DNA of 64,000 nt from Centroscyllium fabricii. Taxonomy: Eukaryota. The translations under genes and the position numbers were made by a program. The notes beneath the pieces are model-generated. The model searched no databases, was not told the DNA's origin, and saw only the letters and a program-made list of their open reading frames with translations. Where the stretch lies: NCBI GenBank assembly GCA_051313645.2, contig JBNRSN020000002.1:323764001-323828000 (forward strand). Reading direction: 5' to 3'. This document shows positions 33,026 to 43,889 of the stretch, one piece after another (the first letter of the stretch is position 1; each line of letters opens with the position of its first letter).

Positions 33026-33062
33026 ATGGATTCCAACTGCCGGAAGCATTGCGTCGAATTGT
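33026..33062 (+). CDS. pitx2: Pitx2 exon 2 coding part (a/b N-terminus MDSNCRKHCVEL); exon starts at 33003
   Basis: Acceptor CTCTCTCCAG|ATAAC, donor T|GTGAGT. Resembles human METNCRKLVSACVQL. Phase 1. Confidence 0.85.
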
Positions 33063-34004
33063 GTGAGTAAATACTTTTTTTCTTAAAAAGATCCTGCAAT
33101 ATAGTTCGGTTAATACTTGTGCGAAATTTTTAACCTAGATATCGTTGACACGTATTGAAGCTGAATTAGACATAATTGATTACGGTGTTAAGCCACTGGA
33201 ACTGATTTCTCTGTAATGCACCTTCTAATACCAACCTCCACAGAGGATATTTCACGTTGTATATGACCGTCTAAAATTATATTTTCAAGCAAGTATAAAA
33301 CTTAAGCAATAACTTGATTTTTTTCAAGCAACAAAATATTATAATAAACATCGTTGCAATGAGAGCAAAAGTAATAGAAATATTAATGCAAACGTAAAAT
33401 TATAAATGATAGCAAATTTTAAAAAGTAAAAAAAAGCTATTCTTTTGGAATAAACGCCGACACTATATTTTAAAATAGATAACAGTTGTAGTTCTAAAAT
33501 TCTGCAGACCCCAAGATGTTAAACGGTGTTGTGGGTGACGCATGTTGATGATGTCATGGCTGACATTAATTAAGTAGACACCAAAGGAGAGAGCCGGAGC
33601 TCGATGTGCCATAAGGAACGTTTAATTAACTCCAGTACTGGAACAGACATTTCTTTTGCTTTTTGCAAGTTTCAAAATGCAGTACTTGTGCAGTAATCTG
33701 GGACAGCGAAATCTTTTCAGTACTCCAAAAAAAGGGGTGGGGGGTAATAAAATGCAGACAACCCCAATACAGTTCATTCCATAAGATAAGAAAAAAGGGG
33801 AAATACTCCTTTTCAAACAAATGTTTTGTAACATTATTAACATGGCCCTATAAGAATAATTCGACCAAAGTGTTTGCCATTAAAAAATGTCATTTAAAAG
33901 GCATATATAGAAAATAACTATCAAAATTAAAGGTTATAAAATAGTTTAAACACACAACTATCCACCTCTTTAAAGCTGCTTTCTTATCCTACGATTATTT
34001 TTAT

Positions 34005-34250
34005 TATTATTATCCATTGATGGGATGTGGGCGTCGCTGGCTGGCTAGGCCTGCATTTAGTGCCCATCCCTAATTGCCCTTGAGAAGATGGTGGTGAGCC
34101 GCCTTCTTGAACCGCTGCAGTCCATATGGTGTAGGTACACCCACAATGTTGTTAGGAAGGGAGTTCCAGGATTTTGGCCCAGCGACAGTAAAGGAGCGGC
34201 GATACAGGTCCAAGTCAGGATGGTGTGTGGCTTGGAGGGGAACTTGTAGG
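34005..34250 (-). repeat. LINE 3' tail fragment in Pitx2 intron 2
   Basis: Reverse-complement match to the tail of the SINE at 24680-24730, ending in a TTA-rich tract. Confidence 0.6.
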
Positions 34251-34562
34251 TGAGCCGTCTAAAGTTAGCTAGAATCTGATTTCTGTAATAACCATGCTGC
34301 TAGTATTACAAATGCATTTTGCTGGGTCCACTTGACGGCATTCAGACGTTTTCTGGTAGATTTTAAAATGCAAAACATGAATACCTGATAAGGGACGTTG
34401 GTGAGAGTATGCATAAGTGACGAGAATCAACGGAGCAATCTTAACTACGGTTTGGAATGGCTAACAATCAGAAGGCCTGACAGAATTTCCTATTACGTTA
34501 TATTTACCTTCCTTAAAATTATGAGGTTATGTGAGTTTCGTTTCCATGTTCCCCTCTCTCAG

Positions 34563-34697
34563 CGTCGCAGACCTCTGTTGTGGAATGTTTATTTACGAAA
34601 GACACAGAAATACGAAAATCTGAATTAAGTTCTGCAACTGAAGCTGGAAACAGCAGAAAAGACAGTAAATTCCTGAGGCATCACCTCGACTCGAATG
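34563..34697 (+). CDS. pitx2: Pitx2 exon 3 (Pitx2b-specific)
   Basis: Acceptor CCCCTCTCTCAG|, donor G|GTAGGC. 135 bp, phase 1-1. Encodes SQTSVVECLFTKDTEIRKSEL..SKFLRHHLDSN, versus human PITX2B VQPAAVECLFSKDSEIKKVEF..SKFFPRQHPGAN. Confidence 0.9.
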
Positions 34698-42099: not shown

Positions 42100-42345
42100 G
42101 CGCTCACACGCCCCTCGGCCCTCGCGCGCTGCTGACGTCACAGACGCGGGCGGGGCGGGCACCGGCCCTGGCGGCCCTGATTGGTTGGGTGAGGTCCCGG
42201 CATTGGCTGGAGTCCCGCCCTCTCGGCCTTTTCACGGGCCGGGAAGCCGCGTCAATCTGCATGAGTGACAGGGAGGAGGCGGAGGCCCGCGGGGAGGAGG
42301 GACGGTGCAGGTTATCAGAGGCGGCTTCGCTCTTAAAGCCACTGG
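42100..42345 (+). promoter_or_regulatory. pitx2: Pitx2c internal promoter (small CpG island)
   Basis: CRE TGACGTCA at 42133-42140, GC boxes GGGCGGGGCGGG, two ATTGG (reverse CCAAT) boxes, TATA-like CTTAAA at ~42332. About 400 bp upstream of the Pitx2c ATG. Confidence 0.75.
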
Positions 42346-42729
42346 CGAACAGGCAGCGCGTTTGCGGCAGGAGCAGCGGCAGCCTGAGGATCCTTATCTG
42401 CAGTTACCTATCCCTGTCACTCGGACACACACACACACACACACACAGTGTCAGCCCGGAATAATTCATTCATTGTAACCTCACTGCTTCATCTCCTCTG
42501 GCACACGTTCATTTCTGCACGGGCTTTAATGAAGACAGCAGCTCGAAAGCGCATTTCGAAGAGCTGTGCAACTATTTACTGAAGGTTTGTGCACTGCAGC
42601 TCCTGGATCACCCCACCCCCCCAGATCATTGCATCCCCCATTGGACTTGTTTTTTTAGTGTAAGGTGGGCTGCGAGGAAATTTAATCCTCTGTGGAAACG
42701 TCGCTTCGGCTGCTTGTATTTGTTTATAG

Positions 42730-42913
42730 ATGAACAGTGCAAAAGATCCGTTGACTTTGGACCACCTTAGAAACAGCAGCCGCGGTAATAAACTGGTGCG
42801 GGATCAGACAGCTTTAGCCATGGCTTCGGGTTTGCAACCAGTACGAACAAGCGAGCCCAAGCACCGGCTCGAGGTTCACACTTTATCGGACACCTCCAGC
42901 CCTGACACGGGAG
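42730..42913 (+). CDS. pitx2: Pitx2 exon 4 coding part (Pitx2c N-terminus)
   Basis: MNSAKDPLTLDH..LAMAS..KHRLEVHTLSDTSSP matches Pitx2c. Donor G|GTAAGG, phase 1. Confidence 0.95.
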
Positions 42914-43683
42914 GTAAGGCCTTTTCGTTCCACATGACACCGCATCGATTGCACTCCCGTCGGACATTGTGCCACTTCCTTATTTTATGGCATAACTTTA
43001 TTGCGTCTCCGAAAAAGAAATGCAATGCGTTTTGGCATCAGCAATAATTTTCTTAGTACGAGATAATATGTTCAATTCTACACATGGTATATCTACAAAT
43101 TGCACCGTTTCTGATTTATATCTCTATGGATGTGCAATGAAATGTTATATGAAATATTGTTTGCTATAAATTAAACACTGGTAGGGATATTACATATTCA
43201 TTTAATTATTACAGTCTAAAATGGGGCTTTCATCCGCATGTGTAAGGAAAGATGTTTTGCATTTGCCAATGAAGGGAACAGCTTGTTTGTATTTTATTGA
43301 CCCTGAAAAAAACACGCAGTTGTCTGGGTATAAATCAGGCACTGAAATAAATTGTACCTGTCATTTTTGTTTCTTTATCACAAAAATCCTTGCATAACTC
43401 TACAAACGTACAAATAAAATCTATAAAACAATGCGCAACAATAAACTATCGTCGTTTAAAGGGGAAACAAATGTATTTAATGTAACCTCTTAACCGTGAG
43501 TTACTAGAATTTAAATCCGCAATATCGCTGGTCGTCATGCACTGGAAAGTACATTTGAGATGTGGGATATATAGCTCATTGTTTTTCGTTGGCACTTTCT
43601 TTCCTTGGATGTCTAAGTTCACCATTTGTTGAAGTAAATCGATTGGAAAATCACCGCTCATTGTATCATCTTTTTGTCCTCAG

Positions 43684-43889
43684 AAAAAGATAAAATTCAG
43701 CAAAGCAAAAACGATGACACGAATACGGACGACCCGTCAAAGAAAAAGAGACAAAGGCGCCAGAGAACTCACTTCACCAGTCAACAGCTACAAGAACTGG
43801 AGGCAACTTTTCAGAGAAATCGCTACCCAGACATGTCTACGAGGGAAGAGATTGCAGTTTGGACCAATTTAACTGAAGCTCGAGTCCGG
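43684..43889 (+). CDS. pitx2: Pitx2 exon 5 (homeodomain helices 1-2 and start of helix 3)
   Basis: TCCTCAG| (E)[62 protein letters not shown]. 206 bp. Confidence 0.98.

Follow-up and report, generated by a model that had tools for sequence, protein, structure and literature searches.

The Pitx2 Locus of Centroscyllium fabricii

The window analyzed here, a stretch of 64,000 nucleotides from the shark Centroscyllium fabricii, carries the gene Pitx2 on its forward strand (33026-46319). Its layout resembles that of the human and mouse gene, where six exons yield the isoforms Pitx2a, Pitx2b, and Pitx2c, with exons 2 and 3 belonging to an upstream promoter, exon 4 to an inner promoter, and exons 5 and 6 being shared (as described in PMC2330153). 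The features on which the following sections rely are listed below.

33003..33062, + strand: Pitx2 exon 2, 60 nt, with the start ATG at 33026 and 12 codons plus one base
33062..33062, + strand: final base T of exon 2, opening the split codon, which reads Ser when joined to exon 3 and TAA when joined to exon 5
34563..34697, + strand: Pitx2 exon 3 (b-specific), 135 nt, phase 1-1, intact, beginning with CG; shares 36-39 of 44 residues with each of four other sharks
34602..34697, + strand: exon 3 from a possible Pitx2b2-type inner acceptor, a candidate site 39 nt into the exon; open, Tyr, 300 aa
42730..42913, + strand: coding part of Pitx2 exon 4 (N-terminus of Pitx2c), last base G; c isoform open
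43684..43889, + strand: Pitx2 exon 5 (5' part of the homeobox), beginning with AA; ATG 43714 out of frame, ATG 43833 in frame
45756..46319, + strand: coding part of Pitx2 exon 6 (3' part of the homeobox and C-terminus), its end derived from the 313-aa length of Pitx2b

The assignment to Pitx2 rests on exon 5, which is 97% identical to shark Pitx2 (P0132) versus 81-87% for the comparisons made with Pitx1 and Pitx3 proteins; Pitx1 and Pitx3 are separate loci elsewhere in the same genome. Exon 2 matches the 7.2-Gb genome of the species exactly once, and a second copy of this exon is thereby ruled out. Its coding part (33026-33062) is 37 nt long and ends in phase 1 (TTG T|GTGAGT), and the start codon has an A at -3 and a G at +4. 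As had been claimed from the letters alone, it is three codons shorter than its human counterpart, encoding 12 residues here versus 15 in human PITX2A (P0158). Exon 3, for its part, aligns with the b forms of turtle, frog, and bichir.

The candidate inner acceptor in exon 3 is an in-frame AG at 34602, at the exact offset of the mammalian Pitx2b2 site (39 nt in mouse, according to PMC2330153), so the choice between b1 and b2 may date back to jawed vertebrates. Some 15-20 kb upstream of Pitx2, positions 11398-14424 of the window hold two long neighboring open frames (235 and 773 aa) which, judged by eye, resemble the gag-pol of an LTR retrotransposon.

Besides Pitx1 (L003), Pitx2, and Pitx3 (L004), the genome contains a fourth gene of the Pitx family (L005/L007; G000:C745:83987801-83991306, + strand), of which both the homeobox exon and the last exon are open. 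In a tree of 22 last-exon sequences it sits, long-branched, among the Pitx3 sequences (support 89/88, not starred), and it could be a fourth ohnolog that was retained or else a diverged duplicate of Pitx3. A literature search on Pitx4 and Pitx5/6/X returned nothing relevant by title. The intron of this fourth gene also carries a fragment that duplicates the beginning of the last exon (L007:2063-2113), about 800 nt before the full exon and comprising about 17 codons of homeodomain helix 3 with one change. Pitx3 (G000:C711:573666903-573667103) lies on the same contig as Pitx2, at a distance of about 250 Mb.

Coding Outcome of the Splice Junctions

Two of the three classical isoforms are as intact in this shark as they are in human and mouse. 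Exons 2-3-5-6 translate into an open frame of 313 aa with Ser at the split codon (Pitx2b), and exons 4-5-6 into an open frame of 317 aa (Pitx2c), the same length as the shark c forms P0132, P0136, P0139, and P0142. The difference from the mammalian system lies in the junction between exon 2 and exon 5, which gives a stop codon here: when the two exons are joined directly, the final T of exon 2 and the initial AA of exon 5 form a TAA at codon 13, directly after the 12 codons of exon 2. Junction translation thus confirms the core of the original prediction, namely that exon 2 ends in T and that this base keeps the frame open with exon 3 but closes it with exon 5. The accompanying statement that the human split codon starts with G is borne out indirectly, as human PITX2A has Glu at the junction.

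Because the exon 2-exon 5 join gives TAA at codon 13, the Pitx2a protein cannot come from the canonical junction. The translations therefore support the conclusion that, via canonical junctions, a full-length protein from the upstream promoter requires exon 3 in this shark. Critically speaking, a stop at this position is not by itself improbable by chance, T being one of four bases.

The Split-Codon Base in Other Sharks

Combined with exon 3 of this genome, an A at 33062 would encode Thr, a C Pro, and a G Ala; Ser is obtained from T only. The proteins of Scyliorhinus canicula, S. torazame, Chiloscyllium punctatum, and Cetorhinus maximus all begin with the identical 12 residues of exon 2, followed by Ser. 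Since the T reproduces the Ser of four other species, this comparison of sequences makes a sequencing or assembly error at 33062 very unlikely. From the same Ser we infer that exon 2 ends in T in the four other sharks as well.

Ser can equally be encoded as A|GY, in which case Pitx2a would still be open in other sharks, with Lys at the junction. This leads to a different reading, according to which the T is confined to C. fabricii (or is an assembly error after all) and the other species still make Pitx2a. In its favor, the residue at this position is Gly in most b forms of bony vertebrates (34/38), only one base change from AGY. On the other hand, any base but T at 33062 would give a residue other than the Ser of the four sharks, and a switch between TCN and AGY requires changes on both sides of the intron, which makes a common T the simpler reading. 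The count of shark a-type proteins (0/10, in a biased sample) likewise argues against it, and we regard a T restricted to this species as improbable, with roughly one chance in fourteen. A degenerate version of the exon-2 pattern had 0 matches in metagenome contigs.

Exon 2 Proteins across Vertebrates

To place the shark junction in context, a final set of 327 proteins was surveyed, of which 129 distinct ones contain both the exon-2 motif and the homeodomain motif. Groups were set by motif and not by taxonomy; the survey pattern missed lungfish P0326 and axolotl P0295, and the fragment P0001 was left out.

All 10 distinct shark proteins with exon 2 and the homeodomain include exon 3 (b-type), in a sample that is biased toward that exon. 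One of the queries was exon 3 itself, cluster representatives were searched, and the cluster listings covered at most 15 members each, in clusters of up to 200; for these reasons the absence of shark a-type proteins is weak evidence. Several numbered shark isoforms fall outside the survey (Cetorhinus X3, C. punctatum X5, and the X2 forms of C. plagiosum and Mustelus), and protein data cannot show noncoding transcripts. Within the survey, every C. punctatum isoform covered (X1-X4 and X6) is b-type, with at least four accessions for X6, and S. torazame has the b-type entry BAK57345.1, which we take to be a cloned cDNA from its accession type. No ray or chimaera protein with exon 2 was found among the matches of three homology searches and the cluster members listed, Pristis being represented by a c form only. 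When P0001 was compared with 50%-identity representatives, the sole matches were P0001 itself and one unrelated-looking protein.

Bony vertebrates present another picture. Among the 26 exon-2 proteins of teleost type, 23 are a, none is b, and 3 are odd predictions, whereas the 93 from other bony vertebrates divide into 29 a, 42 b1, 16 b2, and 6 other forms. Zebrafish and chicken have been described with Pitx2 a and c (PMC3267762), although bird b forms do occur among the proteins retrieved. Forms of the b type are also present in bichir and sturgeon, and b is therefore older than the split between sharks and bony fish. Teleosts resemble the shark in that one isoform of the upstream promoter is missing while c is kept, but the isoform that they lack is the opposite one (23 a and 0 b of 26 for the teleost type, against 10 b of 10 in sharks).

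The junction residue itself, scored in an earlier protein set, separates the groups completely. In the a-type proteins of bony vertebrates scored it is Glu (29) or Asp (12), so that 41/41 have a codon starting with G, and the same holds for 38/38 of the longer forms, with Gly (34), Asp (3), or Val (1). In sharks, it is Ser in 9/9 proteins. It is this contrast, with 79/79 G-initial residues in bony vertebrates versus 9/9 Ser in sharks, that makes the junction stop more than chance.

Possible Routes around the Stop

A stop at the canonical junction would matter little if an a-type protein could be made by another route. Alternative donors near exon 2 can be ruled out, since, apart from 33062, no GT or GC site in 33030-33200 yields an open a-type frame. 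UAA read-through or editing was set aside on general grounds. The further routes involve the following elements.

43688..43690, + strand: AAG at +6, its AG being the proposed rescue acceptor (exon start 43690); likely a by-product of Glu-Lys codons
29447..29532, + strand: candidate upstream 5' exon (start approximate), ATGs out of frame; matches the N-terminus of Cetorhinus X2, donor after 29532, ATG scan 29380-29532
30285..30370, + strand: candidate upstream 5' exon (start approximate), no ATG; matches the N-terminus of Chiloscyllium X2, donor after 30370, ATG scan 30200-30370
32455..32554, + strand: candidate upstream 5' exon, in-frame ATG 32455 stopping after 16 codons; matches the N-termini of Cetorhinus and Chiloscyllium X1, donor inferred from the sequence

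The AAG had been put forward in the original prediction as a rescue, and it is a weak one. Joined at 43690, exon 2 indeed gives an open frame of 266 aa with Tyr at the junction, and the start of exon 5 that this requires (Glu-Lys-Asp-Lys) is shared by Cetorhinus, Carcharodon, Mustelus, and Pristis. By contrast, Glu is the third residue of exon 5 (Glu-Lys-Glu-Lys) in S. canicula, S. torazame, C. punctatum, and C. plagiosum, and if these catsharks and bamboo sharks carry the T, the +6 acceptor would produce a stop once more, because T would then be followed by AA or AG. The motif AG|AAAAAG also occurs at the Pitx1 acceptor of the same genome, as expected from Glu-Lys codons. Moreover, AAG is a weak splice acceptor, and this one comes after a CAG backed by a strong pyrimidine tract; the two residues that its use would remove are present in all the shark b and c proteins displayed. 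Taken together, a rescued a-like protein of 266 aa is very improbable, with odds that we would place near one in seventeen.

The second route leads over the 5' exons. At least three candidate alternative 5' exons in 29447-32650 match N-terminal extensions of RefSeq shark isoforms, and for the two candidate first exons tested, a direct join to exon 5 leaves the codon open (GAA). None of the three offers a usable in-frame ATG within the scanned ranges, and splicing from exon 1 straight to exon 5 was rejected on that basis, the 5' ends of these exons being approximate. The RefSeq extensions were likewise rejected as conserved coding sequence: the one starting at 32455 is interrupted by a stop here, which suggests that they are 5' UTR.

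Possible Fates of a Transcript without Exon 3

In unproductive splicing coupled to NMD (AS-NMD), one splice choice introduces a premature stop that precedes the last exon junction by more than 50-55 nt. Skipping of exon 3 would share this general scheme, the junction stop lying 204 nt upstream of the last junction, but here the stop arises at the very point where a skip that preserves the frame joins the exons, and it falls on codon 13, in a region usually exempt from NMD. In LMNA and beta-globin, NMD is not set off by stops that fall in the first 21-23 codons, and TAA is among the least NMD-prone stops (PMC12776119, a preprint on mammalian genes). Codon 13 is nearer to the start than the at least 21-23 codons that these mammalian genes call for, although sharks may differ. 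The idea, also part of the original prediction, that exon-3 skipping serves as an NMD off switch is consequently not supported.

A broader version would be regulated unproductive splicing, in which exon 3 is skipped in some tissues or stages, so that the upstream promoter would deliver a lower dose of Pitx2, whether or not the mRNA decays. Mouse does in fact favor removal of exon 3, giving a Pitx2a of 271 aa and leaving b1 scarce (PMC2330153), and PITX2 is dose-sensitive, as its haploinsufficiency shows (PMC3267762). The distance of the stop from the last junction and the Ser kept in all five sharks fit this version as well. Against it stand the refractory nature of the first codons and of TAA described above, the lack of any skipped shark protein among those retrieved, and the fact that slow change of the whole exon would explain the conservation of Ser equally well. 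We consider regulated unproductive splicing unlikely, at about one chance in eight.

If skipped mRNA escapes NMD, as start-proximal stops do in the mammalian preprint (PMC12776119), its 12 codons could also act as a uORF, followed by a restart at the in-frame ATG 43833. This would yield a Pitx2 of 206 aa with a truncated homeodomain, much like the dominant-negative human PITX2D, which is truncated in the homeodomain and inhibits the other isoforms (PMC2330153; PMC5753117). The human 206-aa isoform X1 (P0162) begins at the same Met. Human PITX2D, however, is made from the c promoter via a cryptic exon 5 acceptor, and no shark counterpart of this protein was found with the one sequence type looked up: the 206-aa sequence of Cetorhinus/Carcharodon type is absent from the protein collection. 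In addition, the out-of-frame ATG 43714, opening a frame of 52 aa, precedes the restart site. Such an inhibitor has, in our estimation, a probability of only about one in twenty.

Both ideas can be combined into a bolder proposal, namely that sharks turned the Pitx2a splice into a regulated brake, where a 12-codon uORF on an NMD-resistant mRNA results in either no Pitx2 or a restarted, truncated inhibitor. This, too, is unlikely (again about one chance in eight); if it were true, a single base in a split codon would have reversed the sign of an ancient isoform.

A Probable Obligatory Exon 3

In our view, the observations are best explained by an exon 3 that has become obligatory in sharks, with the Pitx2a protein lost and b and c left. 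Judged from the sequences compared, this is likely, at roughly seven chances in ten, and the requirement for exon 3 probably extends to sharks other than C. fabricii. Of the two possibilities that the original prediction had offered, loss of Pitx2a and an off switch, the first stands to the extent that the canonical exon 2-exon 5 junction cannot yield Pitx2a, whereas the second found no support.

The simplest order of events would be as follows. The jawed-vertebrate ancestor would have been capable of both a and b splicing, after which inclusion of exon 3 became dominant in the shark lineage. From then on, the split codon would have been constrained only in combination with exon 3, allowing its first base to change from G to T. 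This T would in turn have made skipping unproductive, locking exon 3 in. Present-day shark transcripts from the upstream promoter would then nearly always contain exon 3, any skipped transcript being a minor, nonproductive by-product that encodes a peptide of 12 residues. Faced with the same choice, teleosts seem to have gone the opposite way, keeping a and c.

Two further points count against an obligatory exon 3. Its donor (ATG|GTAGGC) fits the usual consensus only moderately well. Furthermore, full inclusion would need a regulatory change, because skipping is the preferred outcome in mouse.

Implications for Pitx2 Isoform Biology

The Pitx2 gene and its isoform system are well known. A lineage in which the ordinary join for a produces a stop, as a counterpart to teleosts with their apparent absence of b, appears to be new: among the papers listed in a literature search that did not reach most subscription journals, none described a loss of Pitx2a in sharks. 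Pitx2 governs the development of the pituitary, teeth, eyes, head muscles, and left-right asymmetry. The effect of losing one isoform is nevertheless expected to be modest, as DNA binding and activation have been reported to be comparable among the isoforms (PMC3267762).

On a practical note, the a isoform should not be assumed when probes or constructs for shark Pitx2 are designed. Shark Pitx2 would also illustrate clearly how a single base, in a codon divided by an intron, can make an alternative exon obligatory. Should sharks be limited to b and c, and teleosts to a and c, then neither a nor b is indispensable by itself, and both groups together would form a natural pair for testing whether the N-terminal isoforms are functionally different.
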